Source: a bacterium (GTDB lineage Bacteria > Hydrothermota > Tepidihabitantia > Tepidihabitantales > Tepidihabitantaceae). Taken from it: 28,245 nt of DNA. The notes under the pieces were generated by a model. It was not told where the DNA came from. It made no database searches and saw nothing but the letters and a program-made list of their open reading frames with translations. A program made the position numbers and the translations under genes. Where the stretch lies: the NCBI GenBank assembly GCA_046485285.1, contig JAWOHE010000049.1, forward strand, positions 1-28,245. Reading direction: 5' to 3'. Below are positions 4,972 through 20,614 of the stretch, one piece after another; the first letter of the stretch is position 1, and each line of letters opens with the position of its first letter.

Positions 4972-4983
4972 CCGGGAGCGCGC

Positions 4984-5436
4984 TTGGGCCGAAAGTCCTG
5001 GGACCGCTACTTCATGGACATCGCCCGGCTGGTCAGCGAGCGGTCGACCTGCCGGCGCCGGTCGGTCGGCGCGGTGCTGGTGCGGGAGAAGCGGATACTC
5101 TGCACCGGCTACAACGGCGCGCCGGCCGGGATGCCGCACTGCGACGAAGCCGGCTGTCTCCGCGAGAGTCTCGGGATTCCCTCGGGCGAGCGCATCGAGA
5201 TCTGCCGGGGCATTCACGCCGAGCAGAACGCGTTGGTCCAGGCCGCGGCCTTCGGCATCAGTGTGGGCGGCGCGACGCTCTACTGCACCCACGAGCCCTG
5301 CATCACCTGCGGCAAGATGCTGGTGAACGCCGGCATCCGCGAGTTCGTCGTCGCCGAGCCGTACCCGGACGAGTTCGGCCGCGAGTTGCTGAGGTCGGCC
5401 GGTGTCCGCGTGCGCGGGGTCGAGGAGACCGCTTGA
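4984..5436 (+). CDS. Deoxycytidylate (dCMP) deaminase, ComEB-like
   Basis: SWDRYFM..A..VS.RSTC.RR.VGAV, TGYNGAP, IHAEQNA and PCITC zinc-deaminase motifs; TTG start with GGAG upstream. Confidence 0.92.
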
Positions 5437-5460
5437 CATCACGCCCGCGCTTCCTAGCAT
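5433..5460 (+). promoter_or_regulatory. sigma70-like promoter for lgt, probably leaderless
   Basis: TTGACA (5433-5438), 16 bp, TAGCAT (5455-5460); ATG only 6 nt downstream; no SD. Confidence 0.75.
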
Positions 5461-5466
5461 AGCCGG

Positions 5467-6252
5467 ATGTTCCCAACCATCCTGAGACTCGGCGGCATCC
5501 AGATCTACTCGTACGGGCTGATGCTGTTCATTTCGTTCCTGCTCGGCATCTTCATCGTCGAGCGCCGCGCCCGGCGGTTCGGCGTCGAGTCGAAGGACGT
5601 CACCGACCTCGCGCTCTGGATCCTGGTCGCGGTCGTGGTCGGCTCGCGGCTGTTCTACGTCGCGTTCCACTGGAACGAGTTCAAGGACGACCTGATCGGC
5701 ATCATCGCGTTCTGGCGGGGCGGGCTGGCCGGGCTGATGTTCTACGGCGGGTTCCTCGGCGCGCTCATCGCCGGGCTGATCTTCGTCCGGGTCCGCCGCC
5801 TGCCGGTACTGAAACTGCTCGACGCGGCCGCGCCGGCGATAGTGCTGGGAGAGGGATTCACCCGGATCGGCTGTTTCCTGAACGGCTGCTGCTACGGGGT
5901 GCCGACGACCGGCTGTACCGGGATTCACTTCCCGCTCCACTCCCCGGCCGGGGCCAGCTATCCGGGGCAGGCGATTCACCCGACCCAGCTCTACTCCTCG
6001 CTGGCCGGGTTCCTGCTGTTCGGTATCGCACTCCTGCTCGAACGGCGCCGGCTGAAGGAGGGCGTGCTGTTCGCGGTGATGCTGATTCTCTACTCGCTGT
6101 TCCGGTTCGGGATTGACTTCGTCCGCCACTACGAGAACGCCGCCAACTACTGGGGCAACCAGGTCGTCGCGCTCGGGCTGACCGCGGTCGGCATCGTGCT
6201 GCTGGTGGTCTTCCTGCGGCGGCGGTCCGGCGGTGCGCGGGCCCGCGGCTAG
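5467..6252 (+). CDS. lgt: Prolipoprotein diacylglyceryl transferase
   Basis: MFP.L...G.I.IYSYG, GSRLFYV, FYGG, RIGCFLNGCCYG, HPTQLY and RF.IDFVR motifs; multiple TM helices. Confidence 0.95.
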   Translation: MFPTILRLGGIQIYSYGLMLFISFLLGIFIVERRARRFGVESKDVTDLALWILVAVVVGSRLFYVAFHWNEFKDDLIGIIAFWRGGLAGLMFYGGFLGALIAGLIFVRVRRLPVLKLLDAAAPAIVLGEGFTRIGCFLNGCCYGVPTTGCTGIHFPLHSPAGASYPGQAIHPTQLYSSLAGFLLFGIALLLERRRLKEGVLFAVMLILYSLFRFGIDFVRHYENAANYWGNQVVALGLTAVGIVLLVVFLRRRSGGARARG

Positions 6253-6952
6253 CCTCCGGCGGCTCCTCGGCGGGTTCGCCGACTTCCTGTTCCCACCGGT
6301 CTGCCTCGGCTGTGACGCCGACATCGAGCGAGGCCTGGTCTGCGCTCCCTGCCGCGAGCGGCTGTTCGGGGGCGGGCCCGGCGTCTGCCCGAGGTGCGGC
6401 CGGCCGGTTCGACGCGGGGCCGGGGATTGCGGCCGGTGCGGGGTCACTACGAGCGTCGAGCGGGTGCGGGCGCTCGGCCCCTACGCGCCGCCGTTCATCG
6501 GGCTGGTCCAGGCGCTGAAGTACCAGAACAAGACCGCGCTGACAAGCCTGCTCGGCGCGGCGCTGTGCGGGCTGGTCGAGTCCGACCCTGAGCTCGCCCG
6601 GTGCGACGTCGTCTGCCCGGTGCCGCTCCACCGCGCGCGGCGCCGGGAGCGGGGCTACAACCAGGCGGAACTGCTGGCGCGAGAGGTCGCGGCCGGGACC
6701 GGCATTCGCTGCGCCGACCTGCTGGTCCGGCGGCGGAACACGCGGACCCAGACGCACCTCGCCGACGACCGGGCGCGGCAGGTCAACGTCAGCCGGGCGT
6801 TCGCGCCGGCGGCCGGGCTGCGGCTTGAGTCGGAGCGGGTACTGCTGGTTGACGACGTGACGACCAGCGGCGCGACGCTGGACGCGGCCGGGCGGCAGTT
6901 GCTGGCGGCCGGGGCCGGGAGCGTGGCCGGGCTGGTTATCGCCGCGGCCTGA
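6233..6952 (+). CDS. comF: ComF family protein (double zinc ribbon + phosphoribosyltransferase)
   Basis: FPPVCLGC...CAPC...CPRC...CGRC; LKY; PVPLH..R.RERGYNQAELLA; VLLVDDVTTSGATL. Confidence 0.9.
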   Translation: MRGPAASLRRLLGGFADFLFPPVCLGCDADIERGLVCAPCRERLFGGGPGVCPRCGRPVRRGAGDCGRCGVTTSVERVRALGPYAPPFIGLVQALKYQNKTALTSLLGAALCGLVESDPELARCDVVCPVPLHRARRRERGYNQAELLAREVAAGTGIRCADLLVRRRNTRTQTHLADDRARQVNVSRAFAPAAGLRLESERVLLVDDVTTSGATLDAAGRQLLAAGAGSVAGLVIAAA

Positions 6953-8231
6953 GCGCCGGGGCGAGGGCGCAGATGCTGTCGCGCACGGCCTCGAAGCCGG
7001 CGAGGAACTCCGGCTTGACCGGCTCGACCCGGGGCGGGTCGAGCCTCAGGGGGTTGACCGGAGTGCCGAACTTGTGGATTTCGAAATGCAGGTGCGGGCC
7101 GGTCGAGAGACCGGTCGAGCCGACGTAGCCGACGACCTGGCCCTGGCTGACGCTGGCGCCGACCCGGACGCCGCGGCCGAAGCCGCTCAGGTGGCCGTAG
7201 CGGGACAGGTAGCCGCCCGGGTGGCTGACCTCGACGCAACGGCCGTAGCCGCCCTTCCAGCCCGCGAAGACGACCCGGCCCTCGGCGACCGACGAGGCCG
7301 GGGTGCCGGTCGGCGCGGCATAGTCGACGCCGTGGTGCTGGCGCCAGGTCCGGATGATGGGGTGGAAGCGCCGGCCGAAGAAGGACGTGACGCGGGCGAA
7401 GCTGAGCGGCGACTTGAGGAAGGTCTTGCGCATGCACTCGCCGGCCGGGTTGTAGTAGTCGGTCCGGCCCTCGGGGTCGGTGAAGCGGAAACCGGCGAAG
7501 TCGCCGACCGCGCCGGAGTAGCGGACGCCGACGACCGGTTCGTAGCCGACGAGCGTCGAGTCGCACAGCCGCCGGGTGACGTAGATGTAGAACGAGTCGC
7601 CGACCTGGCTCTCGGTGAAGAAGTCGACCTCCCAGCCGAGGACCTCGGCGTAGTCGAGGACGAGCGCCGGTTCCTCGCCGAGCCTGACGAGGGCGTCCCA
7701 GAGCGACGAGTTTATCGCGCCCGAGACGACTCCGGGCACGCGCTCGACCTGGCGCAGGAGCGTGCCGACCCGGTCAGGTGGGCCGATGTCAACACGCCAG
7801 ACCCGCTCGAAGTCCTGGCGGTAGAGCAGGCGGGCGCGGGGTCCGGCGGAGAGGAAGCTGAGCGAGTCGCCGGGTCGCATCCGCCGGAAGTCGAACCCGG
7901 CGGCACCGAGCGCGGCGACGACCCGGGCGGCAAGCGTGTCCGGGACGCCGGCACGGGCGAGCACGCGCGGCATCACCTCGCCGGGTCGGACCGTCGTCGC
8001 GGTCGTCGTCCACTCCGGGGCGGGCGGCGGGGCGGGCTCGGGCGGCGCCGGGCGGGGGCGGCGCGCGATGAGCACGGCGATGACGAGGACCAGCGCGACC
8101 AGGGCGGCCGCGCCGAGCGCGGCGAGCAGGAAGCGGAGGAGCACGGGGCGGTCGGGCGGCAGGCCGGGCCGCCAGGCCTTGAATGGCGGGAGCGGGCCGG
8201 GGCCGGGCGGGCCGGGGTCCTGCGGCGTCAT
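6936..8231 (-). CDS. M23 family peptidoglycan DD-metalloendopeptidase (MepM/OapA-like) with N-terminal membrane anchor
   Basis: HHGVDY (HxxxD), YGHL and STGPHLHFE (HxH) motifs; FLKSPL..ARVTS.FG.RFHPI; N-terminal TM. ATG 8231 preferred over 8258 because a promoter occupies 8239-8266. Confidence 0.92.
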   Translation of the reverse strand: MTPQDPGPPGPGPLPPFKAWRPGLPPDRPVLLRFLLAALGAAALVALVLVIAVLIARRPRPAPPEPAPPPAPEWTTTATTVRPGEVMPRVLARAGVPDTLAARVVAALGAAGFDFRRMRPGDSLSFLSAGPRARLLYRQDFERVWRVDIGPPDRVGTLLRQVERVPGVVSGAINSSLWDALVRLGEEPALVLDYAEVLGWEVDFFTESQVGDSFYIYVTRRLCDSTLVGYEPVVGVRYSGAVGDFAGFRFTDPEGRTDYYNPAGECMRKTFLKSPLSFARVTSFFGRRFHPIIRTWRQHHGVDYAAPTGTPASSVAEGRVVFAGWKGGYGRCVEVSHPGGYLSRYGHLSGFGRGVRVGASVSQGQVVGYVGSTGLSTGPHLHFEIHKFGTPVNPLRLDPPRVEPVKPEFLAGFEAVRDSICALAPALRPRR

Positions 8232-8238
8232 CGACACA

Positions 8239-8266
8239 ATCTTAGCGACAGCAGACAAGAGCGCAA
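8239..8266 (-). promoter_or_regulatory. sigma70-like promoter for the M23 gene, probably leaderless
   Basis: Minus strand TTGCGC (8266-8261), 16 bp, TAAGAT (8244-8239); ATG 7 nt downstream. Confidence 0.55.
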
Positions 8267-8275
8267 CCCGGGAGC

Positions 8276-8304
8276 TTGACGCGGCGGGGGTGGGAGCCTA
8301 GCAT
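8276..8304 (+). promoter_or_regulatory. sigma70-like promoter for amrS
   Basis: TTGACG (8276-8281), 17 bp, TAGCAT (8299-8304); GGAGG RBS at 8322-8326. Confidence 0.65.
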
Positions 8305-8333
8305 TTCGGCGTGACTCGCGCGGAGGCCGCCCA

Positions 8334-9320
8334 ATGAACGTGCCGGCCCGCTACTGGCGGCCGGAGGGCGACAGGGCGCGGTGCGAGTTGTGCCCGAACC
8401 TCTGTCTCATCGCGCCCGGCCGCCGGGGTCGCTGTCTCGGGCGGGTCAACGTCAACGGACGGCTTGAGGCGGTGAGTTACGGTGAGGTCGTCTCGATCGC
8501 GGTTGACCCGGTTGAGAAGAAACCGCTCTACCACTTCCACCCGGGCGAGAGGATACTCTCGGTCGCAACCTACGGCTGCAACCTTGCCTGCCCGTTCTGC
8601 CAGAACTGCGAGATATCACAGCAAGAGGCGCCCGGACGCTCGACCGCGCCCGCCGAGCTGGTCGAGCTGGCGCGGCGTTCCGGGACCTTCGGGGTCGCGT
8701 TTACCTACACCGAGCCACTGGTCTGGTTCGAGTACCTGATGGACAGCTGCCCGGTGCTGCGCGCGGCCGGGCTCCGGACCGTGCTGGTGACCAACGGGAT
8801 GGTCAACCCGGCGCCGCTCGAGGAGCTCCTGCCGTACGTCGACGCGATGAACATCGACCTGAAGTCGATCCGACCCGAATTCTACCGCGACTACGTCCGG
8901 GGGAGCCTCGACGCGGTGCTGGGCTCAATCCGGGCCGCGCGCCGCCGCTGTCACGTCGAGCTGACGAACCTCCTGATTCCCGGTCGGAACGACTCCGATG
9001 ACGACGTCACCGCGCTGGTCGAGTTCGTTGCCGGGCTCGGGCGCGACACGGTGCTGCACTTCTCGCGCTACTTCCCGCGCAACCGTGCGGGCGAGCCGCC
9101 GACGCCGGTCGCGGCGCTCGTCCGGGCCGGCGAGCTTGCCCGGCGCCGGCTTGACTACGTCTACCTGGGCAACCTCGAGGCCGGGGGCGAGTGGCGGGAC
9201 ACGCGGTGCCCGCAGTGCGGAAGCCTGCTGGTCGAGAGGAGCAACTACAAGGGCCGGGTTGTCGGGATCAGCGCGGGAGCCTGCACGGCCTGCGGCCGCA
9301 GGGCCGACGTGGTGCTGTGA
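8334..9320 (+). CDS. amrS: AmmeMemoRadiSam system radical SAM enzyme
   Basis: N-terminal CELCP..C......GRC; DPVEKKPLYHFHPG; CNLACPFCQN (CxxxCxxC); FTYTEP; NIDLK; HFSRYFP; YVYLGN; C-terminal CPQC...CTAC. Confidence 0.93.
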   Translation: MNVPARYWRPEGDRARCELCPNLCLIAPGRRGRCLGRVNVNGRLEAVSYGEVVSIAVDPVEKKPLYHFHPGERILSVATYGCNLACPFCQNCEISQQEAPGRSTAPAELVELARRSGTFGVAFTYTEPLVWFEYLMDSCPVLRAAGLRTVLVTNGMVNPAPLEELLPYVDAMNIDLKSIRPEFYRDYVRGSLDAVLGSIRAARRRCHVELTNLLIPGRNDSDDDVTALVEFVAGLGRDTVLHFSRYFPRNRAGEPPTPVAALVRAGELARRRLDYVYLGNLEAGGEWRDTRCPQCGSLLVERSNYKGRVVGISAGACTACGRRADVVL

Positions 9321-9330
9321 CGACCGGGAC

Positions 9331-9359
9331 TTGCAGTCCGGCTGTCGACCGGCTATAGT
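9331..9359 (+). promoter_or_regulatory. sigma70-like promoter for the small membrane protein
   Basis: TTGCAG (9331-9336), 17 bp, TATAGT (9354-9359); ATG 9 nt downstream. Confidence 0.55.
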
Positions 9360-9368
9360 TGACCCGCA

Positions 9369-9650
9369 ATGCGACCACGCGGAACCCGGACCGGCGGCCG
9401 TTCGGTGACGCTGCTGGTGCTGGCGGTGCTGATCGCCGGCGTGCTCGGCAGCGTCGTATCGCACTTCATGGCCGGAGTTTTCCCCACCGGCCCGGTCCGG
9501 GATTTCTTTTTCTCGGGGTTGAGCATCGGCGTGCCGGCGTTCAGCGTGAACCTCGGGTTCCTGGTTCTCACCTTCGGACTTACCTTCTCGATCACGACCT
9601 TCGTCGTCATTCTCGTCGGGCTGGCGGTCTACCTCTGGTACAAGCTCTAG
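9369..9650 (+). CDS. Small membrane protein, DUF4321-like
   Basis: 93 aa; hydrophobic N-terminal helix (LLVLAVLIAGVLGSVV), then P.GPVRDFF...SIG...FSVNLGFLVLTFGLTFSIT and a C-terminal TM; pattern recalled as DUF4321. Confidence 0.75.
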   Translation: MRPRGTRTGGRSVTLLVLAVLIAGVLGSVVSHFMAGVFPTGPVRDFFFSGLSIGVPAFSVNLGFLVLTFGLTFSITTFVVILVGLAVYLWYKL

Positions 9651-9668
9651 CCCGACGGTCCGGGAACC

Positions 9669-9698
9669 GAGAGGGGCGGCCGCCAGGCCGCCCCTCTC
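9669..9698. terminator. Perfect 13-bp hairpin between convergent genes, probable bidirectional terminator
   Basis: GAGAGGGGCGGCC-GCCA-GGCCGCCCCTCTC; lies between stops at 9650 and 9714; no U-tract on either side. Confidence 0.7.
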
Positions 9699-9713
9699 CA
9701 AGTCCTGCCGCGG

Positions 9714-12700
9714 TCAGCGCTGAAGGACCAGCTTGCGGGTCAGCAGCGCCGGGCCGTTCTCGAGCCGGAGCAGGTAGACCCCGCGCGGAACCGCCCGACG
9801 CGAATCGTCCAGGCCGTCCCAGCTGAATGAGTGGCGTCCGGTCGGGAGCGTGGCGTCGACCAGCCGCCGGACCAGCCGGCCGCCGGCATCGTAGATCTTG
9901 ACGCTTGTTCGGTCGCGGTGGACGACGTTGCAGCGGACTACCGTGTGGCCGACCATCGGGTTGGGCGCGGCCGCGAGCTGCGGGCCAAGCGGTCCGGCCT
10001 GCCCGGCCATGACGCCCGACCGCCCGGGCCGGGCCGCCATCAGCGCGCCGGTGGCGGTGTCGGCGGAGGGTTTGTACTCCCAGAACTCGAAGCCGCCCGA
10101 CCCCTTGAGGCAGTAAATCGTCGATTCGGCCGCTGCCAGCGCTGAACCTCGCCTGACCCTGAGGCGCTTGCCGGTCAGCGAGATCGGTATGTCGGTGATC
10201 TGGAGCCACGAGTCCTGGTCCATGCGGTATTTCCAGAACTCCTGTTGGTTGCCGCCCTTGAGCATGTAGAGAGCGCCGTCCAAGTAGGTCATCGAGGCGC
10301 CTTCCTTGACCCTGCGGCGTCGACCCCGGCGGTCAATGTACAGGTGGGCGGAGTCGAGCGGACGAACCACCCGGCTGAAGGGGTTGAGGCTGTAACTCTC
10401 CAGCGTGTTCGAGCCCTTGAGGGTGAATAGCGTGGTGTCGGCGAACACCATATCCGAGCCGAACTTGCATCGCCTGCCGCGCGGACCGAAGGGCACCTCA
10501 AAGCGCCGGCCGCCGACATCGAGCAGGACACCCCATCCCCCGCTGGCGACGTCGAAGCGAAGCACCAGGTTGGTGTTGTTGCCAACGAGGCAGAACACCG
10601 CGCCCTCGCTGCCGAGGCCCGGGACGTAGGCCAGCGCGGCACCCTTCTTGGGTGGGCGGGCACCCCAAGTGCTGCTGGTTACGCTCGAGCACGGAATCCA
10701 GATCTTGGTCTCGATGTCGTAACGGTAGAAGTCCGTGACGCCGCCAGCCTTGATCGCCCAGAGCGAGCCGAGGTTGCCGTGGTCCGGGTCGAAGGCGAGG
10801 TCGCAGCCGTACTTCGCCCGGCGGCCGGAAGGCTCGATCGGCATCGAACACACCAGCGCCCATTCGCCGGTTGCGATGTCAAAGGCCCAGACCTCGTTGT
10901 CGTTCGAGCCCTTGAGCGCGTAGAGCTTGTTCTCGGTCGGCACGTGAGTCAGCGCTGCGAACTTGACCCGGCGCCGGCGCGGGCCGACTGGGATGTCTTC
11001 GCGCTGAATCCAAGGCGAGACGACAACAACCGTGCTGACGATGTCGTTGGTCGAGTCGATGTCGCCGGACATCCACGTCGAGCAGATGGCAGTGTAAGTA
11101 CCGACCTGCGCATCCCACGGCGCGAACATCACCGTCGTGCTGTCGCCGGGGAGAAGACCGGAGACCACGGTAGAGTCGACATAGCCGGGCTTGATTTTCA
11201 TCCAGACGTGGATGTCGTCGACGACGGTGCCGTAGTTCTGGATCTTGGCCTGCGGGACGTACTGCTGCGGGAAGACGTAGCCGGTCGGGGTCAGTATCTC
11301 GAGCGCAGCCGCATCCCGGAGCACCGGGTTGAGACGAATGACGCTGCCAGATCGAACTCGGTTTTCAAGATCGTTCGTCGCGGCTGACATCGGCGGGCGG
11401 GCGTAGAGGTAGGTGAGGCCGTCGCTGCCCAGGCGGTTCTCGAGCCCGATACCGGCGCCGCGGGCGTCGTTGAATGCCAAGTCACCGGTCGTGACGTCGC
11501 GGTACTGGAAGATGACGTGGCCGTTCTCCTGGAGGATGACCTGGAAGGAGAGGAGGTCGGAGGTGTCGGTGCCGACGCGGTTGACGTTTTCCCAGATAAT
11601 CGCGAGACGACGGTTGGGGGCCGTGCCCACGGTCCGAGACCAGATTCTGCCGCCGCCGAAGCCGGGGCCGCAGGCGAGGTTGTCCCACCACGCGTAGAGC
11701 GCGTTGTTGGGAGTCGCCGGATCGGGCAGGACTGCCGGCAACGACTCGTTGGTGAGCGGGTCGGGTCCGAACGAGAGCCAACCGTTGGTGGTGACGTAGA
11801 TGTTGGTGTAGGTCGTGTCGAAGTAGCGGAACTCGAAGCCGATTGGCACGTAGATCCGTTGTTCGTCTCCGGAGGCGATGATCAGCGATGCGCTGTCGGA
11901 ACTCACCCAGTCATAGGTCGGGCCGGTCGCGGTGTCGCCGTCGATCCAGGCGTAGTAGCCGCTCGGGCTGACGCCAGTGTGGATTCCCTTCCGGACGGCG
12001 AAGCCGAAGCTCTTGGTGTCGTTGAGAGGTTGGTCGTCGATCAGAGGAGCGACGAGCGAGCGGACCGTTACCCAGACCGAGCAGGCCTCAGACGCCAACG
12101 GCACCCAGGGCAGGAACTCGATAATGGCATCTTCGCCCGAGGTTAACGCAAGCGGCTGCTGGTCGAAGAAACGCAGGTCGCCGGACTCGGTGGCTATCGA
12201 ACAGACCACCGCGAAGTCGGCAAGGTCATCCGTGCCGTTGTTGTGGACTCGCGCGCGAACCGCGAGCGGCCGGTCGTAGGGCCGCTGGACAAACTCGTAC
12301 CACGGGAACTCGATGTGCGTTGTCCGCATGTCTCGCGTAAGCGGTGGCAATGCCTCGTGGTTGATGACCACCCGGACCATGAAGTCCCGGTCGGTGGAAT
12401 CGGGGACGAAGGTGCCGGCGCGATACTGCCACCAGGTTGCCCCGGGATTACGGCCCGCATCGTAGCCGAGCGATGGGCATTCCGGGGGTTCGCCGACCTG
12501 AAGGCAGAAGACGTAGAACGCACCGGAGTTGATGACGATGGCATCGCCATTGTCCCCGACCGGTACCGAGTTCCAGCCGTCGGCCCCTGGCAGTACACGC
12601 GAACGGTGGAGCAGGTCGCCCGGTTCGGAGCCAGCCTCGGCCATCACCGCGAACTGGAAGCGGTTGTCGGCAGGGTTGGCAGGCAGCTGCAGGAAGGCCT

Positions 12701-13712
12701 TGAGCGACTCGAGGTAGACCGGGTAGCTCGTCGGCTCGAAGCGCGCTCCCCAGCCGTAGTGGCCGACCGGCCAGGACTCGTAGCCTGCAACTGCGCCGTC
12801 GTCGTGGCGGAGTTCATCTGAGTAGCTGACGGTGAAGGCGCGGTTGAGCGTGTCGTTGAGGGGATTGTCGTCGAGCGCTGCCTCACACCAGAACTCGATG
12901 AGATACTGGCCAGCCGTCAACCCCGCCGTGTGGTCGTCGAAGTCAACCGGCACGGTCTCGAATGACGCGAGCACGGGAATCAACTCGGACCAACTGTCGA
13001 TCAGGTTGAGGGCGTCGTCATAGAGCCGGCACTCAACAGGGATGTCGGTCTGGTCGTTGAGGCCGTTGTTGCGGAAGCGGGCGCGTGGAGTGAGGTCGCC
13101 TGGCATCAGCCTGGCCGGCGGGTTGACGATCTGCTCGCACTCGATGTCCCAGTCCGGGATCGACTCGCCGGTGACGACGACGTCGTCAATCGCCCAGTGG
13201 CTAATGTACGCCTTGTTGCCGACGTGTATCCAAGCGATGCAGACCTGTGACGCGTTGCTGGCCTGAGTCAGCGTGAAGGTCTCCAAGGCAGGACCGACGT
13301 TGAGCTCCCGGTAGTCACGCAGCAGGTACGGATAGCTGATCCCGCCGTCGATCGAGTAGCGGAGCTGGGCGGTGTAGGGCTGGTTTACGTTACGGACGAA
13401 GACAGTGCTGCAGTTGAGCGTGACGTTGGTGTATCCCGAGCAGTCGATGACCGGGGTGATGAGCGAGTCCTCGAGTTCGTCGCCGGCCAGGTCGTAGAAG
13501 ATGGCCGCGTACGGGGTGGGGTGACCGGTCCAGGGCGGCAGCAACTCGGGCCGGCGGTGCCAGTCGTCATTCCCCGCCGCGCCGGTGTAGTGTATACGCC
13601 AGCCAGCGGGCGGCGCACTGGTGCTCCACGCACTGTCGAAATCCTCGGTCAGGAGGTCGTACCCTGCTCCCAGGGACGTGACCAGAGTCAGAGCCAGGAC
13701 CAAGCTGCGCAT
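9714..13712 (-). CDS. Large secreted surface protein (1332 aa): MAM/adhesin-like domain, CARDB-like Ig domains, NIDO-like domain, six Kelch-like repeats, FlgD-Ig/T9SS-like C-terminal domain
   Basis: AGGAGG RBS before ATG 13712; signal peptide MRSLVLALTLVTSLGA; EDFD...P.GW...LITP.ID...WAIDDV; repeated ..V.N.G...D....ND motifs; six LKGxN..EFW.Y-type repeats; PNP...IYDAGGRLVRRL...WDGLDD.RRAVPRGVYLLRL...RKLVLQR. Confidence 0.85.
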   Translation of the reverse strand: MRSLVLALTLVTSLGAGYDLLTEDFDSAWSTSAPPAGWRIHYTGAAGNDDWHRRPELLPPWTGHPTPYAAIFYDLAGDELEDSLITPVIDCSGYTNVTLNCSTVFVRNVNQPYTAQLRYSIDGGISYPYLLRDYRELNVGPALETFTLTQASNASQVCIAWIHVGNKAYISHWAIDDVVVTGESIPDWDIECEQIVNPPARLMPGDLTPRARFRNNGLNDQTDIPVECRLYDDALNLIDSWSELIPVLASFETVPVDFDDHTAGLTAGQYLIEFWCEAALDDNPLNDTLNRAFTVSYSDELRHDDGAVAGYESWPVGHYGWGARFEPTSYPVYLESLKAFLQLPANPADNRFQFAVMAEAGSEPGDLLHRSRVLPGADGWNSVPVGDNGDAIVINSGAFYVFCLQVGEPPECPSLGYDAGRNPGATWWQYRAGTFVPDSTDRDFMVRVVINHEALPPLTRDMRTTHIEFPWYEFVQRPYDRPLAVRARVHNNGTDDLADFAVVCSIATESGDLRFFDQQPLALTSGEDAIIEFLPWVPLASEACSVWVTVRSLVAPLIDDQPLNDTKSFGFAVRKGIHTGVSPSGYYAWIDGDTATGPTYDWVSSDSASLIIASGDEQRIYVPIGFEFRYFDTTYTNIYVTTNGWLSFGPDPLTNESLPAVLPDPATPNNALYAWWDNLACGPGFGGGRIWSRTVGTAPNRRLAIIWENVNRVGTDTSDLLSFQVILQENGHVIFQYRDVTTGDLAFNDARGAGIGLENRLGSDGLTYLYARPPMSAATNDLENRVRSGSVIRLNPVLRDAAALEILTPTGYVFPQQYVPQAKIQNYGTVVDDIHVWMKIKPGYVDSTVVSGLLPGDSTTVMFAPWDAQVGTYTAICSTWMSGDIDSTNDIVSTVVVVSPWIQREDIPVGPRRRRVKFAALTHVPTENKLYALKGSNDNEVWAFDIATGEWALVCSMPIEPSGRRAKYGCDLAFDPDHGNLGSLWAIKAGGVTDFYRYDIETKIWIPCSSVTSSTWGARPPKKGAALAYVPGLGSEGAVFCLVGNNTNLVLRFDVASGGWGVLLDVGGRRFEVPFGPRGRRCKFGSDMVFADTTLFTLKGSNTLESYSLNPFSRVVRPLDSAHLYIDRRGRRRRVKEGASMTYLDGALYMLKGGNQQEFWKYRMDQDSWLQITDIPISLTGKRLRVRRGSALAAAESTIYCLKGSGGFEFWEYKPSADTATGALMAARPGRSGVMAGQAGPLGPQLAAAPNPMVGHTVVRCNVVHRDRTSVKIYDAGGRLVRRLVDATLPTGRHSFSWDGLDDSRRAVPRGVYLLRLENGPALLTRKLVLQR

Positions 13713-13832
13713 TTTAGCCTCCTCGCTGTTCTTTCGCCCGGCCGGACCCGTCCGTAGGTAGCCCGGTCGGACCGGCCGAGCCTGACGCGATGCCGACACG
13801 TTTCGCTGTCCAACTGCAAGATTACCATAGAA

Positions 13833-13860
13833 ATTATAGACCCCGACCGAACGGTGTCAA
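13833..13860 (-). promoter_or_regulatory. Consensus sigma70 promoter for the large secreted protein
   Basis: Minus strand TTGACA (13860-13855), 16 bp, TATAAT (13838-13833); both hexamers are perfect. Confidence 0.8.
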
Positions 13861-13971
13861 TGAACTACCCGGGGCGGCGCCGGCGGGTAAGCGAAAGAGG
13901 GGAAACGGGCAGGCGGGAGACGAATCTGCTTCCCTCTATCTCTCGATCCCCTCCCTTTGACAATCCGGCTG

Positions 13972-13999
13972 TTGACAACCGGCGTACCGCGAATAACCT
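13972..13999 (+). promoter_or_regulatory. sigma70-like promoter for the pseudokinase operon
   Basis: TTGACA (13972-13977), 16 bp, TAACCT (13994-13999); a second TTGACA at 13957-13962. Confidence 0.65.
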
Positions 14000-14014
14000 A
14001 AGGTGGATATTTCG

Positions 14015-15412
14015 ATGCTTGAGAAAGAAGCCAGGACGCTCCGCCACCTGATGACCGAGCGCGGCTACTTAGCCGAGCCGGAGGTCGTCGAGGTGTTCCT
14101 GGACATCGTGCGCGCCCTCGGCGCCTCCCACGCGCAGGGAATCCTGCACGGAGACATAAAGCCGGAGAAGATCGTCCGGTCCCGCGACGGCAGGTACACG
14201 CTGGTCGACTACGGCGTCTCGAGGCTCGGCACCGCCCGCTACATGTCGCCGGAGCGCGCCCGGCGCGAGCCGACCGACGCCCGCTCCGACATCTACTCCC
14301 TCGGGGTCGTCCTGTACGAGGCGGCAACGGGCCACCCGCCGTTCGAGGGGATGAACTACCAGGTCATCCAGAGGCACATCAGCGCGACGCCGCGACTGCC
14401 GAGATCGCTGCGACCCGGGATATCGGCCGAACTCCAGTGGGTGATCAGGACGGCGATGGCCAAGGACCCGGCCGACCGCTACCAGACCGCGAAGTCGATG
14501 GAGGAAGTCCTGCGTGAGATCGTCGCGCCGCCGGCCGTTGCGACGACTGCCGCATCGTCGGCACCGGTGACCGCGCGGGCGGCGGGAGGGCAGGTGGCGT
14601 CGGCGGTCCGCGTCCCGTCCGGGACGATGAGCGGCCGCCGTCCGCCGGCGGGCGCGGCCGCCCGCTCCCCATCGGCGCGCACGGGCGCGGCAGGGATGGT
14701 TCGACGCCCGGCCCCGGCGAATGTCGGGATGCCGGCGGCCGAAGGACGGGAGACGCGATACGTGAGACGGGAGGCAGTCCCCGGTCCTCGGTCCCCGGTC
14801 GCCCCGGACGTCGTTGTGGCTCAGCAGGCGAGACCGGTCGGACGCACCACGCCGCGAAGGTTGCCGCTAGCGCTGTTCGCCGGAGTAGTCGGACTCCTTG
14901 CCGTCGCGACGCTTCTGCTGGCGACCGGCCGGTCACACAAGGTTCCCGATGTCCTGGGGTTGACCGAAGAGCGGGCGGTCGAGCTGGCCGGTCGTGCCGG
15001 TCTGGTGGTGGTGTCCTACGGCGAGGCCCGCGACGATACCCTCCCGGCGGGTCGTGTCGTCGAGCAGTCGCCGGCCGTGGGGGTGCGGGCACACAAGTCG
15101 GACACGGTGAGGGTTGTACTCAGCACCGGCAGGATCAGGATACCTGACGTCGTCAACCTGAGCGCAACCGAGGCCGTCGAGATGCTCACCCGCCTCTCGT
15201 TGCCGATTCTCGCGGTGGAGTCGGTCTACTCCGACCTGCAGGAAGTTGGCAGCGTCGCCGAGGTCCAGCCCGAGTCCGGCAGCCGGGTCGAGCTCGGCAC
15301 CTCGGTCCGCCTCAAGATCGCCTCCGGCCGGGCAACGTGCCCGAGGTGTCGGGCTTCGCGCGACCGGGGTGCGCGTTTCTGTACCTCCTGCGGCTACCGC
15401 TACGAGTTCTGA
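14015..15412 (+). CDS. Hanks-type Ser/Thr kinase-like protein (C-lobe only, predicted inactive) with TM helix, two PASTA domains and C-terminal zinc ribbon
   Basis: HGDIKPEK, DYG, GTARYMSPE, SDIYSLGVVLYE..TG.PPF and AKDPADRY are present; no GxGxxG or VAIK; TM LALFAGVVGLLAVATLLLA; VPDVLG...VVEQSP and IPDVVN...AEVQP PASTA repeats; CPRC...FCTSCG. Start ATG 14015 (GTG 14003 alternative); in-frame stop at 13994-13996. Confidence 0.85.
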   Translation: MLEKEARTLRHLMTERGYLAEPEVVEVFLDIVRALGASHAQGILHGDIKPEKIVRSRDGRYTLVDYGVSRLGTARYMSPERARREPTDARSDIYSLGVVLYEAATGHPPFEGMNYQVIQRHISATPRLPRSLRPGISAELQWVIRTAMAKDPADRYQTAKSMEEVLREIVAPPAVATTAASSAPVTARAAGGQVASAVRVPSGTMSGRRPPAGAAARSPSARTGAAGMVRRPAPANVGMPAAEGRETRYVRREAVPGPRSPVAPDVVVAQQARPVGRTTPRRLPLALFAGVVGLLAVATLLLATGRSHKVPDVLGLTEERAVELAGRAGLVVVSYGEARDDTLPAGRVVEQSPAVGVRAHKSDTVRVVLSTGRIRIPDVVNLSATEAVEMLTRLSLPILAVESVYSDLQEVGSVAEVQPESGSRVELGTSVRLKIASGRATCPRCRASRDRGARFCTSCGYRYEF

Positions 15413-15431: not shown

Positions 15432-16466
15432 GTGAGACTTCGGTCCCCGGGTCGGCTGCTCATCGTGTTGCTCTGTTTGGCCGTAGGCCTGACACTTGCG
15501 GCGAAGACCTGCCCGCAGTGCGGCACGTCGAACCCCGACAACGCGAGGTTCTGTAAGAGCTGTGGGTATTCATTCCCCGCCCGGTCCCGGCCGCAGGCCC
15601 AGCCGGCATTGCGGGTTGAGGTCAGTGTTGGGGCCCTGGGCGAGGTCAGCGTCAACTCGACGCCCGAGGGCGCGGCAGTGAGAGTCGGCGGCACTAGGCG
15701 CGGCACGACGCCACTTGTCCTCACCGACCTCGCTCCCGGTCGTCACGAACTCGAGCTGACCCGCGCAGGATACCGGGACTACCGCGGCAGCCTCGAGGTT
15801 CCCGAGCCGGCCGGCGTCATTAAGGTGACGACGATTCCGTCCGGCGCCCAACTTGTTGTTGACGGGCGCAGTGTCGGTTCGGTCCCGGACACGGGGATGG
15901 TCGTGACCGGACTGGGCCCGGGCAGCCACACGGTCGTTGCCCGACTACCCGGCCGGCCTGACCAGGAACGCGAGGTAGTCATCAGCGAGGTTCTGCGGAC
16001 TGTCGCCCTGCGGATCGATTTGCCGATGGCGGAAGGCTTCCTTCTCGTCGAGAGCGACCCGCGCGGGGCGAACGTCATCGTTGACGGGCAGGGAGTCGGC
16101 CGGACCAGCTATTTCGGGGCGCTCGCGCCGGCTGACTACCGGCTCGAGCTTGCGCTCGGGGGGTTCAGGCCCTGGATCAGTGACGTGAACATCCGGCTGG
16201 GCGACACGACCGCGGTTTCCGCGGTCCTCGCGCCGATGCGCGTGCGCCGCTGGGGCCTGCTCGCCACCGGTGTCGCGGGGATCGCGGGCGGCGTGATCGG
16301 CGCGGTGCTCGGCGAGTCCAGCTACCGGGAGTACGTCGCCGCGGACACGTCCTACCGCCCGGACGAGGTGGCCGGCCTTCGTCAGAGGACGATCGCGTTC
16401 GACTGGGTTCGCAACCTGGCCGGCGGGCTCGGGATACTGAGCCTCGGCGCCTTCGTGCTGTTCTAG
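15432..16466 (+). CDS. PEGA-domain membrane protein with N-terminal signal peptide and zinc ribbon
   Basis: GGAGG RBS then GTG 15432; hydrophobic N-terminus LLIVLLCLAVGLTLAA; CPQC...FCKSCG; three repeats V.S.P.GA.V.VDG...G.TP/S; two glycine-rich hydrophobic C-terminal helices. Confidence 0.85.
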   Translation: MRLRSPGRLLIVLLCLAVGLTLAAKTCPQCGTSNPDNARFCKSCGYSFPARSRPQAQPALRVEVSVGALGEVSVNSTPEGAAVRVGGTRRGTTPLVLTDLAPGRHELELTRAGYRDYRGSLEVPEPAGVIKVTTIPSGAQLVVDGRSVGSVPDTGMVVTGLGPGSHTVVARLPGRPDQEREVVISEVLRTVALRIDLPMAEGFLLVESDPRGANVIVDGQGVGRTSYFGALAPADYRLELALGGFRPWISDVNIRLGDTTAVSAVLAPMRVRRWGLLATGVAGIAGGVIGAVLGESSYREYVAADTSYRPDEVAGLRQRTIAFDWVRNLAGGLGILSLGAFVLF

Positions 16467-16468
16467 CA

Positions 16469-19396
16469 GTGCGCGTGAGGAGGCTGCTGCCACTGCTGTT
16501 GCTCGGGGCTCTCGTCACCTGTCGGCGGTTCGACAACCCGCTTGACCCGGCCAACAACCAGCCGCCGGGGGTACCCGACAACCCGGTGCCGGCGGTCGGC
16601 GCGGAGAAGCAGGACACGGTTGGGCTGATGCTGAGCTGGACCTGTGCCGACCCGGACTCCGCCATCGGCGACTCCCTTACTTACGATGTCTACTTCGGAT
16701 CCGTGATTCCCCCGCCCAGAGTTGTGTCCGCGATCAGCGCCACGGAATGGGCGACCGGGCCGCTGGCTCTGGGTTTGACTTTCCGCTGGCGGGTCGTTGC
16801 CCGCGACGCGCGGGGCGACACCACGCCCGGGCCGGTCTGGCACTTCACCACCAACGCCAATCAGCGGCCGTCGGTCCCCGCGAATCCGGTTCCCGGGAAT
16901 GGCGCCGACGGGCTGCCGACCGGGGTTGCCCTGTCGTGGCAGGGCGGGGACCCGAATTCGGGCGACACGTTGGCCTACGACCTCTACCTGGGTCGTACCG
17001 ACCCGCCGCCGCTCATCCTTGCGGGGCTGGACGAGCCGGGGTGGACCGTAGCCGGGCTCGATCACTCGCGCACCTACCACTGGCGGGTCGTGGCGCGAGA
17101 CCAGGACTCGGCTGAGACTTCTGGACCGGTGTGGCAGTTCTCGACGATGAGCCAAGTCGAGTTCATCTCGCCCGCGGGGGGTGAGAAGTGGCGAATCGGC
17201 ACCCAGAATGCGGTGCGATGGAGCGGCGGCACGGACCGAGCGGATGGCATCAGGCCGAAGGTAATCGGCAAAGGGGTCAAGGTGCCAGGCTGGCCGGCAA
17301 AGGACGATGCCGATTCGACGGTCCTTTACCACTCACCTGATTCTGGTGCTGTCTGGCTTCGGATTGCGCGGGTGAGTCTGTCTGGTCAGTACAACTGGTT
17401 CGTGACCGGCCCGGAGGGACCGAGCGCAATGGTCCAGGTACGCATTCACGTCGGGCCGCATCTCGAGCGGGCGTCGAGCAACCCGTTCATGGTCTATGAC
17501 GCGCCCAGTCCGATTACTGTCACCTCGCCGTCGGCAGGTGCGCGCTGGCGCGTTGGTGAGCACCGGACAATTGCCTGGTCTGGCGGCACCGACGGGAGTG
17601 ACTCCGCGGTTACCTTCTACTCGACGGACAATGGCCGGAACTGGATCAGACTCGGGCGCGCGGTCCAGGCGGGAAGTTACGATTGGCTCGTACCCGCACC
17701 GACGACCGACTCGGCGCAGGTGCGCGTGCGCTCGTACGTCGCTGACCTGCGGGAGGACGGTGTCAGTGGCCGGTTCAGCGTGGCGGGACCACAGCCGGTG
17801 TTCGTGACCGCTCCGGACAGCAACTCCCGCTGGCGGGCGTTCACTCTCCAGACAGTGGGTTGGTACAGCGAGGCCAGCCCCATTGACTCGGCTGTCGTAT
17901 CCCACCGACCGGATACGATTGGATCCTGGCAGCGGCAGGGCAAAACGACGGGCAGCAGCTACGCATGGATGGTGCCGTTGCCGGCGACCGACCGGGCCCA
18001 AGTCCTGGTCGAACTGTGGCAGGGCCAGTCCAATGACGCCGGTACGAGCTCGCCGTTCGTGATCTACGACACGCTGCCTCCCGCCCCGATAGTCGTACTC
18101 TCGCCGGCGGGTGGGGAGGCTTGGCTGGCCGGTTCTACTCACGACATACTCTGGTCAGGCGGCACCGATGGCGTGGACTCTGCGGTCGTCTCTTACTCTC
18201 CCGATGACGGTGGGACTTGGTCGCGTCAGGGCCTTGCGCGCGAGCCAGGTCGGTTCCGCTGGACACTCCCGAGTCAGACCTCGGACTTGGCGCGGGTTGT
18301 CGTGAGGGCTTGGTGTCTGGGCCGGTCCACCCAGGGTGTCTCCAACCGGTTCCGCATTGCCCGCGAAGGCTATCCTGATTCGGTCGTTGCGACAGTCGCA
18401 GTGGGAAGCCGGCCGGTCGCAGGATGCTGGAACTCCCGTGAGAGCAAGTTGTATGTGGCCAACTACACCTCGGGGACTGTGACGGTGATCAGCGGCACCA
18501 ACGACAGCGTGATCGCCACCGTTACCGTAGGGAGTTACCCGACGGCTCTGGTCTATGATTCGCTGCGTAACAAGGTCTATTGTGCGAACGAGGGCAATCG
18601 AAGCGTCACGGTCATCGACGGGGCGAACAATGCCGTGCTGGGTACGGTTATGGTAGGGACTGCCCCGCGTGCACTTGCATACAACTCGACAAGCGGTCGC
18701 GTCTACGTTGCGAATTACGGAACTGGCGCCAACTCGGTCTCGGTGATTGACGGCGCTACCGATTCGGTCATAGCGACGGTGCCCTGCGGTGAGAGGCCAC
18801 GAGCGCTGGCCTGGAATCCAGTACACAACAGGGTCTACGTCGCCTGCTATGCCGGGAACGTGGTGACCGTGTTCGACGGCGAGACCAATGCGGTCATTGA
18901 CTCGGTTCAGGTCGGCTATGCGCCCTGTGCAGTTGCCGTCGTAGGCGACCGACACCATATCTACGTTGCCAACTCGGGTCCCGGTTCGAACTCCGTGTCG
19001 GTGATCGATGCGGTCAATAACTCGATTGTCGCGCACGTGCCGGTTGGGGCCAGGCCCTGCGCGCTGGCCTGGAACCCGACCGCGAACATGGTTTATGCTG
19101 TGAGCGAGGCAGTCGGCAGCGTCGCCGTCATCCGGACCGCGGACCAGCAGGTCGTGTCAGTTGTTGGCGTCGGGTCGCTACCAGGAGCAGTTGTGTGGGC
19201 CTCGAGTGTCAACATGGCTTACATTGCCTGCCGGGGAAGCGATCAGGTGGCAATCATCAACGGCAGCACGAATGCGCTCGCGAAGCTGCTTGGCGTTGGA
19301 AGCGAGCCGAGGGCTCTGGTTTGGAATCCATTAGGCGGCCGGGTCTATGCGGTCAACGACGTGTCCGGGACGGTCTCGGTCATAGGGTACCGCTAG
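16469..19396 (+). CDS. Large lipoprotein: 2 FN3-like repeats, 4 Ig-like (SPxGGExW) repeats, YVTN/YncE-type beta-propeller with 8 repeats
   Basis: Lipobox LVTC after RRLLPLLLLGA; two NQ.P..P.NP.P...LSW...DP...YD.Y.G...WRVVARD...GPVW.F.T repeats; four ITVTSP..G..W...I.WSGGTD-like repeats; eight V.VG..P.A...N....YVAN...VSVID repeats. Confidence 0.85.
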   Translation: MRVRRLLPLLLLGALVTCRRFDNPLDPANNQPPGVPDNPVPAVGAEKQDTVGLMLSWTCADPDSAIGDSLTYDVYFGSVIPPPRVVSAISATEWATGPLALGLTFRWRVVARDARGDTTPGPVWHFTTNANQRPSVPANPVPGNGADGLPTGVALSWQGGDPNSGDTLAYDLYLGRTDPPPLILAGLDEPGWTVAGLDHSRTYHWRVVARDQDSAETSGPVWQFSTMSQVEFISPAGGEKWRIGTQNAVRWSGGTDRADGIRPKVIGKGVKVPGWPAKDDADSTVLYHSPDSGAVWLRIARVSLSGQYNWFVTGPEGPSAMVQVRIHVGPHLERASSNPFMVYDAPSPITVTSPSAGARWRVGEHRTIAWSGGTDGSDSAVTFYSTDNGRNWIRLGRAVQAGSYDWLVPAPTTDSAQVRVRSYVADLREDGVSGRFSVAGPQPVFVTAPDSNSRWRAFTLQTVGWYSEASPIDSAVVSHRPDTIGSWQRQGKTTGSSYAWMVPLPATDRAQVLVELWQGQSNDAGTSSPFVIYDTLPPAPIVVLSPAGGEAWLAGSTHDILWSGGTDGVDSAVVSYSPDDGGTWSRQGLAREPGRFRWTLPSQTSDLARVVVRAWCLGRSTQGVSNRFRIAREGYPDSVVATVAVGSRPVAGCWNSRESKLYVANYTSGTVTVISGTNDSVIATVTVGSYPTALVYDSLRNKVYCANEGNRSVTVIDGANNAVLGTVMVGTAPRALAYNSTSGRVYVANYGTGANSVSVIDGATDSVIATVPCGERPRALAWNPVHNRVYVACYAGNVVTVFDGETNAVIDSVQVGYAPCAVAVVGDRHHIYVANSGPGSNSVSVIDAVNNSIVAHVPVGARPCALAWNPTANMVYAVSEAVGSVAVIRTADQQVVSVVGVGSLPGAVVWASSVNMAYIACRGSDQVAIINGSTNALAKLLGVGSEPRALVWNPLGGRVYAVNDVSGTVSVIGYR

Positions 19397-19507: not shown

Positions 19508-20614
19508 GTGACGGGCCGTGCACCGGACGCGAAGCTGGTTCGTTCGCTCCTTGACAGGGTCAACGGGAAGGTCGGCCAGCTCTGTTCGGGACAGGGCCGC
19601 GATTCGATCAGCCTGATGGAGGTGTGCGGAACGCACACGATGGCGATTTCCGGGCACGGCATCCGCCGGGCGGTCGATTCCAGGTTAAGGTTGTTATCCG
19701 GGCCGGGGTGCCCGGTTTGCGTGACGACTCAGCCGGAGGTGGACGCCGCCATCGGGCTGGCGAGGAGGCCGGGGACGGTGGTGGCGACGTTCGGGGATAT
19801 GCTGAGGGTGCCGGGCGCACGGGGGTCGCTGGAGGAGGCGCGGGCCGCAGGGGCGGACGTTCGGGTCGTCTACTCGGCACTGGATGCCCTGCGGCTGGCC
19901 CAATCCGCGCCGGAGCGCGAGGTCGTATTCCTCGGCGTCGGGTTCGAGACGACCGCGCCGACAGTGGCGGCGGCAGTGCTGGCGGCCCGGTCCCGGCGCG
20001 TAGGCAACTTCACGGTTCTGCCGCTGTTCAAGCTGGTGCCTCCCGCATTGCGGCTGATAGCCGGGTCGGAGCGGGTGAGCGTCGACGGGTTCCTGTTGCC
20101 CGGTCACGTGTCGGTGATTATCGGGACTGCGCCGTACGCCTTCCTGGCCAATGACTACGCGCTACCAGCGGTGGTTGCAGGGTTCGAGGCGGCCGACATC
20201 GTCCAGTCGCTATGGATGCTCCTGGTCCAGCTCGAGACCGGTCCGAGGCTGGAGATTCAGTACCGCCGGAGCGTGCGGCCGGAGGGCAACCCGGCGGCGC
20301 AGAAGGTGATGGCCGAGGTCTTTGAGCCGTGTGACGCCGACTGGCGGGAAATCGGCATCATCCCGGGGTCCGGGCTGGCCTTCCGGCCGGCGTTTCGCGA
20401 GTTCGACGCGGTTCTGCGGTTCGGCGTGAAGCCAGGTCGGTCGCGCCGGAGCGCCTGTCGATGCGGCGAGGTGATGCTGGGTGTTATCGCGCCACCGGAC
20501 TGCAAGCTGTTCGCGCGCAAGTGCCGGCCGGAGTCGCCGGTCGGGCCGTGCATGGTGTCGTCCGAGGGCGCCTGCGCGGCCTGGTTCAAGTACGAACGGG
20601 AGCATGATGACTGA
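19508..20614 (+). CDS. hypD: Hydrogenase maturation protein HypD
   Basis: MEVCGTHT, GPGCPVC, TFGDMLRVPG, GFETTAP, PGHVS and C-terminal CRCGEV...C...C...GPCMVSSEGAC. Confidence 0.97.
   Translation: MTGRAPDAKLVRSLLDRVNGKVGQLCSGQGRDSISLMEVCGTHTMAISGHGIRRAVDSRLRLLSGPGCPVCVTTQPEVDAAIGLARRPGTVVATFGDMLRVPGARGSLEEARAAGADVRVVYSALDALRLAQSAPEREVVFLGVGFETTAPTVAAAVLAARSRRVGNFTVLPLFKLVPPALRLIAGSERVSVDGFLLPGHVSVIIGTAPYAFLANDYALPAVVAGFEAADIVQSLWMLLVQLETGPRLEIQYRRSVRPEGNPAAQKVMAEVFEPCDADWREIGIIPGSGLAFRPAFREFDAVLRFGVKPGRSRRSACRCGEVMLGVIAPPDCKLFARKCRPESPVGPCMVSSEGACAAWFKYEREHDD

Follow-up and report, generated by a model that had tools for sequence, protein, structure and literature searches.

The window analysed here covers positions 1 to 28,245 of contig JAWOHE010000049.1 (forward strand; assembly GCA_046485285.1), from a bacterium of the family Tepidihabitantaceae in the Hydrothermota. 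It encodes a receptor-like protein, here called the half-kinase, in which the C-lobe of a PknB-type kinase stands alone, without an N-lobe, and is joined through a transmembrane (TM) helix to two PASTA domains and a C-terminal zinc ribbon. This form is old, is shared by most genomes of the family, evolves under purifying selection and is encoded by the first gene of a conserved envelope cluster. We consider it probable, taking the reading as a whole, that the half-kinase is a non-catalytic docking receptor resembling the KIND domain in design; the lack of catalysis, the docking role, the ligand and the partners are what we infer from the evidence below.

The gene and the parts of its product were delimited as follows.

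14015..15412, + strand: half-kinase PASTA receptor gene, an open reading frame (ORF) of 465 amino acids (aa) plus stop
14015..14539, + strand: stand-alone kinase C-lobe (alphaD to alphaI), residues 1-175, from Pfam, the PknB alignment and the structure model; catalytic loop HGDIKPEK at residues 45-52, DYG at 65-67 and SPE at 78-80
14540..14863, + strand: juxtamembrane linker, residues 176-283, Pro/Ala/Arg-rich and predicted to be disordered (predicted local distance difference test score, pLDDT, <50 over most of 180-284)
14870..14926, + strand: TM helix, residues 286-304, a helix in the model, with the basic residues of TTPRR on its N-terminal side
14939..15325, + strand: two PASTA domains (PF03793), residues 309-437, from Pfam, the limits of the second domain being approximate
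15329..15400, + strand: C-terminal zinc ribbon CPRC-N12-CTSC, residues 439-462, predicted to lie outside the membrane (Zn_Ribbon_1)

Pfam Pkinase (PF00069) matched residues 7-162 with profile positions 83-258 of 263 (E 5.5e-23; 82-258 in the genome search), and profile positions 1-82 matched nowhere in the 465-aa protein. Among the best phmmer matches to solved structures, residues 6-177 align with residues 100-288 of the M. tuberculosis PknB chain (E 1.4e-32), with HGDIKPEK opposite HRDVKPAN and DYG opposite DFG. Relative to PknB the activation loop is gapped by 15 residues, between DYGVSR and LGTARYMSPE, and only VSRL separates DYG from GTARYMSPE. When the alignment is extended back ungapped, the start methionine appears, in our own reading, to coincide with the methionine of the PknB hinge motif. 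NCBIfam NF033483 (PknB_PASTA_kin, an equivalog model) was matched at its positions 92-500 of 563 with 240.7 bits against a cut-off of 450; a full-length PASTA/Zn-ribbon paralog encoded elsewhere in the genome likewise scored under this cut-off (334.1 bits).

In the AlphaFold model pLDDT is 88-98 in the 10-residue blocks covering residues 11-170 and 96-98 in the PASTA domains. Foldseek superimposed the model on PknB with a root-mean-square deviation of 1.0-2.6 Å across 163-176 columns (top 20). The residues expected of a PF00069 C-lobe fold, namely the APE Glu, the alphaF Asp and the subdomain XI Arg, are retained, and E80, D92 and R155 do not vary among 23 aligned sequences. The PASTA profile scored 82.7 bits against a cut-off of 23.2 in 2 stretches, the best being 309-371. 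The Zn_Ribbon_1 match (E 2.9e-4, 21 bits) is under its cut-off of 25; a CxxC-N(8-12)-CxxC tail is found in 35/36 family sequences, and the exception is a 362-aa sequence that ends before this region. The positive-inside rule points to an N-in/C-out topology.

The preliminary description of this DNA had the protein begin at the hinge with its N-lobe absent, and the start of both the Pkinase match (position 83) and the PknB alignment (from the hinge) bears this out. HGDIKPEK, DYG and the four-residue spacing between DYG and GT, also described there, are all visible in the PknB alignment, and the C-lobe, the TM helix and the two PASTA domains were found by Pfam or in the AlphaFold model. The parts it listed were therefore all recovered, but the C-terminal zinc ribbon (439-462) had been overlooked.

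The linker contains the motif MSGRRP at residues 205-210 (nt 14627-14644). MSG[RK]RP, usually after G and T/V/I, occurs in 15/36 family sequences, and the remaining linker is unconserved. The motif may be a phospho-acceptor or a docking site.

To describe the active site, residues were counted in 36 non-identical family sequences, some of them near-duplicates.

HxD His: 36/36
HRD Arg: 6/36 (G 15, L 14, K 1)
Catalytic Asp: 34/36
Lys two residues past the catalytic Asp: 25/36
Mg-binding Asn: 1/36 (K 18, R 14, H 2, L 1)
DFG Asp: 21/36
Tyr in place of the DFG Phe: 30/36
APE Glu: 36/36
Activation segment of 16 residues: 34/36, compared with 26-30 residues in four full-length relatives

In the 23-row alignment, invariant and near-invariant residues map to the structural core of the C-lobe and to the P+1 loop. 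A pseudokinase is a kinase-fold protein without the beta3 Lys, the HRD Asp and/or the DFG Asp, according to the available text of PMC12599244. The half-kinase falls under this definition, its beta3 Lys being gone along with the entire N-lobe. The Gly-loop, beta3 Lys, alphaC Glu and hinge are N-lobe elements of the kinase fold. Because all of them belong to the part that is missing, the half-kinase would not bind ATP; lacking both ATP binding and phosphorylation control of an activation loop, it would therefore act by binding. That the protein is catalytically dead, as had been proposed earlier, is strongly implied by the missing N-lobe, the near-complete loss of the Mg-binding Asn, the frequent loss of the DFG Asp and the 16-residue activation segment.

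The host genome (2.34 Mb, 102 contigs, 88% complete) has four Pkinase matches, three full-length (profile positions 1-254/255) and the half-kinase. The half-kinase protein was used as a query against 31 genomes, 19 of them from the same family, with 13 reported for four other families of the order. Orthologs were found in 17/19 family genomes, representing 15 genera, with the match starting at query residue 1-8; the two family genomes without an ortholog in this search were G007 (63% complete) and G011 (88%). The in-frame open stretch 5' of the match is 6-52 codons in 16/17 ortholog loci, and the remaining locus (L007) has 152 open codons in which no kinase motifs were seen by eye. In the 13 genomes of the four other families, the best matches examined either have an ordinary N-lobe or are truncated where a contig ends. 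A search of 44 family genomes with the Pkinase profile found a match from profile position 61-87, in a frame of 396-616 aa, in 35. The preliminary description had predicted a retained form whose N-terminal boundary would recur in related genomes; it recurs by both searches, and no close relative was found to carry a full-length kinase at this locus.

Among 1.84 billion representative proteins searched with HMMER, about 22 further 50%-identity clusters of 362-600 aa match from residue 1-28. Three sequences were left out of the alignment: P0069 and P0120, which are ordinary kinases with HRD, N and DFG, and P0097, a fragment. The half-kinase protein is present in the ESM Atlas, and members of its nearest cluster there (434 aa, 87 members) come most often from candidate division WOR-3, which is a lead only to the phylum of the family. 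Family members go by the database names 'serine/threonine-protein kinase', 'PASTA domain-containing protein' or 'hypothetical protein'. A pattern derived from the alignment returned 79 loci; it proved to be a general kinase motif that retrieved ordinary kinases of other phyla, and these loci were not used.

A maximum-likelihood tree was made of the C-lobe region of 45 sequences (17 halves, 26 full-length, 2 cut or broken), without inferring a root. All 17 halves form one clade (support 100/99), and full-length kinases of the L122/L142 type, which have a PASTA plus Zn-ribbon tail, join this clade at 96/94. The simplest reading of the tree is one loss of the N-lobe in the PASTA/Zn-ribbon kinase lineage; since the tree is unrooted, the direction of loss is taken from the fact that all other kinases are bilobal.

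Selection was estimated from the 17 orthologs under the codon model GY+F3X4+G4. The ratio of nonsynonymous to synonymous substitution rates (dN/dS, omega) is roughly 0.09 for 159 ungapped C-lobe codons, and 170 codons from the TM-PASTA-zinc-ribbon part give 0.09 as well. For the C-lobe, setting omega to 1 without changing the tree makes the log likelihood drop from -6818.1 to -7477.7, about 660 units worse. Neutral evolution of the C-lobe is excluded. Mean pairwise identity over 136 pairs is 0.53 in the C-lobe, 0.39 and 0.36 in the PASTA domains, 0.29 in the linker, 0.27 in the TM helix and 0.67 in the zinc ribbon, so that the C-lobe is the best-conserved large domain of the receptor. The orthologs, the tree and omega together uphold the earlier suggestion that the N-lobe-less form is retained: it is old and under purifying selection, and the dN/dS comparison proposed with that suggestion gave no sign of a neutrally evolving C-lobe. 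Because it is conserved and selected across the family, the half-kinase would be a working non-enzymatic module and not a broken gene.

The region 5' of the gene contains the following elements.

13972..13999, + strand: promoter-like element of putative function, TTGACA (13972-13977), a 16-nt spacer and TAACCT (13994-13999)
14000..14007, + strand: putative Shine-Dalgarno-like AAGGTGGA, read from the sequence, 7 nt 5' of the ATG at 14015
9714..13712, - strand: divergent upstream Kelch/FlgD-Ig gene, 1332 aa, ATG at 13712

An alternative GTG start at 14003 lies within the Shine-Dalgarno-like run. A 302-bp intergenic gap (13713-14014) separates the divergent gene from the half-kinase gene, and an in-frame TAA stop (13994-13996) falls inside the second hexamer of the promoter-like element, 6 codons 5' of the half-kinase start; the stop and the gap had both been described earlier and were verified in the sequence. 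A 91-aa N-lobe query taken from the full-length paralog had no match on the half-kinase contig at E <= 1, in agreement with the earlier statement that no N-lobe relic is seen upstream. The same query matched solely the three full-length kinases of the host genome at E <= 1, and no N-lobe-only gene. The preliminary description had also assigned the gene its own promoter. A hexamer-like pair is indeed present, and its TTGAC and ATAA.CT are invariant at the same position in an alignment of 4 genus members, but a consensus promoter scan did not call the TTGACA-16-TAACCT element. The Kelch/FlgD-Ig neighbour is common to genus members only, the same neighbour being found in 3 congeners. A perfect sigma-70 consensus, TTGACA-16-TATAAT (12/12), lies on the minus strand at 13833-13860 and fits the divergent 1332-aa gene.

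Downstream, the half-kinase gene is followed by two further genes on the same strand.

15432..16466, + strand: PEGA/Zn-ribbon membrane protein gene, 344 aa, starting 19 nt after the half-kinase stop
16469..19396, + strand: third gene, 975 aa, starting 2 nt after the PEGA gene stop

The half-kinase gene is thus the first of a conserved three-gene envelope cluster with gaps of 19 and 2 nt. The 344-aa protein has a signal or anchor segment, a zinc ribbon (residues 25-48), 3 PEGA domains and two C-terminal TM segments (Pfam PEGA 108.6 bits, Zn_Ribbon_1 31.8 bits), and its gene lies directly 3' of the half-kinase gene in 15/16 relatives' loci, one copy being partial at a contig end; in the 16th the contig ends there. 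The 975-aa protein has an N-terminal signal-like segment, repeats and a C-terminal beta-propeller (Pfam Lactonase, YNCE beta-propeller). Its gene is downstream in 14/16 relatives' loci (13 near full length, 1 partial), and the other 2 are cut by contig ends.

Between the last two TM segments of the PEGA protein is a loop of about 35 residues (about 295-330) with the pattern GE..Y..Y..A...R..T..WD..RN. Y298, Y301, A304, D324, R327 and N328 are invariant in 15 orthologs. This loop is a candidate cytoplasmic ligand of the C-lobe. A predicted complex of the C-lobe (1-175), the TM-PASTA-ZnR part (283-465) and the PEGA protein had a score of 0.01 and a mark of 0.32, which is uninformative either way. 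A CxxC..CxxC zinc ribbon is found on the predicted outer face of three envelope proteins, i.e., the half-kinase, the PEGA protein and the full-length paralog kinase; motifs of this type are unusual on that side of the membrane, and this one may bind zinc, form disulfides or be a handle common to the three proteins. Directly after the cluster is the hydrogenase maturation gene HypD (19508-20614, Pfam E 5.3e-138), and the same arrangement is seen in congener L109.

We propose that the half-kinase is a single-pass membrane receptor with its two PASTA domains and zinc ribbon outside and its C-lobe inside, tethered by about 110 residues of disordered linker. Its ancestor would be a full-length Hanks kinase of the PASTA/Zn-ribbon kind from which the N-lobe disappeared a single time, at the root of the family, with a new start codon arising where kinases have the hinge-motif Met. 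Catalysis would be ruled out by the missing Gly-loop, beta3 Lys, alphaC and hinge, by the Lys or Arg in place of the Asn, by a dispensable DFG Asp and by an activation loop reduced to a 4-residue connector. Selection would have kept the folded core of the C-lobe (the HxD His and Asp, the APE Glu, the alphaF Asp and the subdomain XI Arg) and the P+1 loop. The C-lobe would then be a non-catalytic docking module that couples the envelope ligand of the ectodomain to cytoplasmic partners, and the receptor would work with two envelope proteins whose genes are presumably co-transcribed with its own, namely the PEGA/Zn-ribbon protein and the 975-aa beta-propeller protein. PknB forms C-lobe to C-lobe dimers, and the P+1 loop and alphaG region of kinases are substrate and dimer surfaces, according to the available text of PMC13434768. 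Because kinases use these surfaces for substrates and for C-lobe dimers, the retained P+1 loop and alphaG region of the half-kinase are likely docking sites by analogy.

Several observations weigh against the docking-receptor reading. The half-kinase is not universal in the family because 9/44 genomes, 63-97% complete, lack a Pkinase-profile match of this form (G044, G045, G007, G011, G021, G052, G053, G056 and G057), and six of these (G044, G045, G021, G052, G053 and G057) are 90-97% complete. The value of omega is rough because synonymous sites are saturated, with a tree length of 24 substitutions per codon. That the PASTA domains bind peptidoglycan is an assumption based solely on the name of their family. 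Most sequences keep the catalytic Asp (34/36) and the Lys (25/36), for which a pure scaffold has no obvious need; the retained Asp and Lys are possibly structural, as parts of the P+1 loop hydrogen-bond network.

The other kinases of the genome and the family bear on the possible partners of the half-kinase. The full-length PASTA/Zn-ribbon paralog (contig C15, 478 aa, locus L001/L122; L001:865-2298, minus strand) resembles the half-kinase in its PASTA plus CxxC..CxxC tail (zinc ribbon at residues 451-476) and belongs to its sister group on the tree. Unlike the half-kinase, it retains HRD, N and DFG; its Pkinase domain is complete (profile positions 1-254), its activation segment is 30 residues long and it has a single PASTA domain. 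Its distribution is patchy, with matches at E <= 1e-30 in 8/18 other family genomes; none was found at this threshold in the remaining 10, which include all 4 congeners (83-96% complete). A signalling cluster surrounds this kinase on host contig C15 at about 4000-11800 (L001, L002, L120-L122, L142). Just past the kinase gene is a frame with two FHA domains, and a neighbouring gene is presumably PP2C-like, a name given by eye from its motifs. A second kinase in this cluster, of 663 aa, has a C-terminal part that appears, by its motifs, to resemble a formylglycine-enzyme-type domain.

A soluble kinase of about 1750-1830 aa (G000:C18:6935-7672) occurs in most family genomes and in several other families of the order, and in 14/35 genomes with the half-kinase it is the sole other Pkinase match. 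Many family genomes have no PASTA-linked kinase-like protein other than the half-kinase. A second group of full-length kinases (L126, L127, L131 and L132, from G008, G013, G015 and G018) has a degenerate Gly-rich loop, e.g., LETVQKGLLATSYKA, and may consist of bilobal pseudokinases.

Besides a docking receptor, we considered whether the half-kinase is a regulator or decoy of an active Hanks kinase, which we regard as unlikely. Under this explanation it would pair with the kinase through its C-lobe, front to front, or through an ectodomain heterodimer. It would then damp or localise the kinase or present substrates to it, or its own linker would be phosphorylated by the kinase. Dimers of this C-lobe to C-lobe kind have been described for PknB in the part of PMC13434768 cited above. 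On the tree, the sister group of the halves consists of full-length kinases that share their PASTA plus Zn-ribbon tail, and a Ser/Thr-containing linker motif, [GT].MSG[RK]RP, is present in 15/36 sequences. The paralog of the host genome, moreover, adjoins the double-FHA gene and the gene named PP2C-like by eye. However, the motif is absent in the other 21/36 sequences, the full-length paralog was not found at E <= 1e-30 in more than half of the other family genomes searched (10/18, including 4/4 congeners), and in 14/35 half-kinase genomes the only other Pkinase match is the kinase of about 1750 aa. The preliminary description had suggested that the protein may be a scaffold, a decoy substrate or an allosteric partner of an active kinase; the version in which the half-kinase is the partner of an active PASTA kinase is weakened by this distribution.

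A residual or new enzymatic activity, in which the HxD Asp, the Lys and the new Lys/Arg bind or process a phosphorylated or anionic ligand, seems very improbable. It would account for the retention of the Asp and Lys noted above and for the K or R found at the former Asn position in 32/36 sequences. Yet 15/36 sequences have lost the DFG Asp and 9/36 the Lys, the retained residues can be explained by structural roles, and we know of no kinase-fold activity without an N-lobe. Least credible of all is a split kinase, a pseudogene or an assembly artefact, with the N-lobe supplied in trans, a recent truncation or a mis-join. The draft state of the genome is in its favour, since a small N-lobe gene could be unassembled at 102 contigs and 88% completeness. 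Against it, no N-lobe-only match was found in the host genome, the same boundary recurs in 17 genomes of 15 genera with the same upstream neighbour in 3 congeners, and the halves form one old clade with an omega of 0.09 and decayed catalytic residues. A trans-complementing N-lobe was rejected on the first of these grounds, with the caveat of an 88% complete genome, and a recent deletion or misassembly is ruled out by the boundary shared across genomes, the conserved neighbours and the single clade.

If the half-kinase is a docking receptor, prokaryotes too have in the kinase C-lobe an interaction module that is autonomous and evolvable, and envelope sensing of the PASTA type can work without phosphotransfer or kinase activity. 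Automated annotation would in that case mislabel non-enzymes as kinases. The half-kinase is also a natural minimal construct for mapping the scaffold surfaces (alphaG and the P+1 groove) of PknB-type kinases, from hosts that are uncultured bacteria.

Among known systems, the PASTA Hanks kinases (PknB of M. tuberculosis, Stk1/PknB of S. aureus, StkP and PrkC) are the closest relatives of the half-kinase in sequence and fold. They share its order of parts, i.e., a kinase-derived domain, a linker, one TM helix and extracellular PASTA repeats. The half-kinase differs from them in lacking the N-lobe, the HRD Arg, the Mg-binding Asn and a phospho-acceptor activation loop, in having only 2 PASTA domains, and in its terminal zinc ribbon.

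The usual mark of a pseudokinase is a set of point changes in a domain with both lobes still present. Seven bacterial pseudokinase families are named in the available text of PMC12599244 (ActPs1-3, GLW, CP1, DYD and DLHK), where ActPs1 is said often to be without the G-helix. The pseudokinase domain of MviN/MurJ (ActPs3) and EssB/YukC are membrane-associated non-catalytic kinase folds that act as scaffolds in envelope processes (PMC12599244, same text). Going by the descriptions given there, the bacterial families are bilobal with degraded motifs and none is said to be N-lobe-less, unlike the half-kinase (PMC12599244). The available text of the atlas preprint on bacterial serine/threonine kinases (bSTK) makes no mention of truncated kinase forms. 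Among the papers listed from searches of the main texts of open-access papers and bioRxiv preprints, no description of a bacterial C-lobe-only kinase domain was found, and nothing relevant on a combination of PEGA, PASTA and kinase.

To our knowledge, a selected C-lobe-only kinase domain is otherwise known solely from the KIND domain of animals. We give an even chance to the more specific proposal that the half-kinase is an independent bacterial counterpart of KIND. The entire cytoplasmic output of a PASTA receptor would here be a C-lobe that signals by binding, after a single 5' truncation that made the hinge-motif Met a start codon, and the receptor would belong to a three-protein envelope module. 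The KIND profile is absent among the 11 Pfam families listed for the half-kinase protein at E <= 1. The likeness is one of design and not of descent, and protein binding by the half-kinase is presumed. As far as the available texts describe KIND, the half-kinase as proposed here is like it in the idea of a lone kinase C-lobe serving as a protein-interaction module (PMC2064798, PMC5338823, PMC5928657, PMC6615252). They differ in that KIND is eukaryotic, cytosolic and of separate origin, whereas the half-kinase module forms the inner end of a bacterial PASTA receptor.

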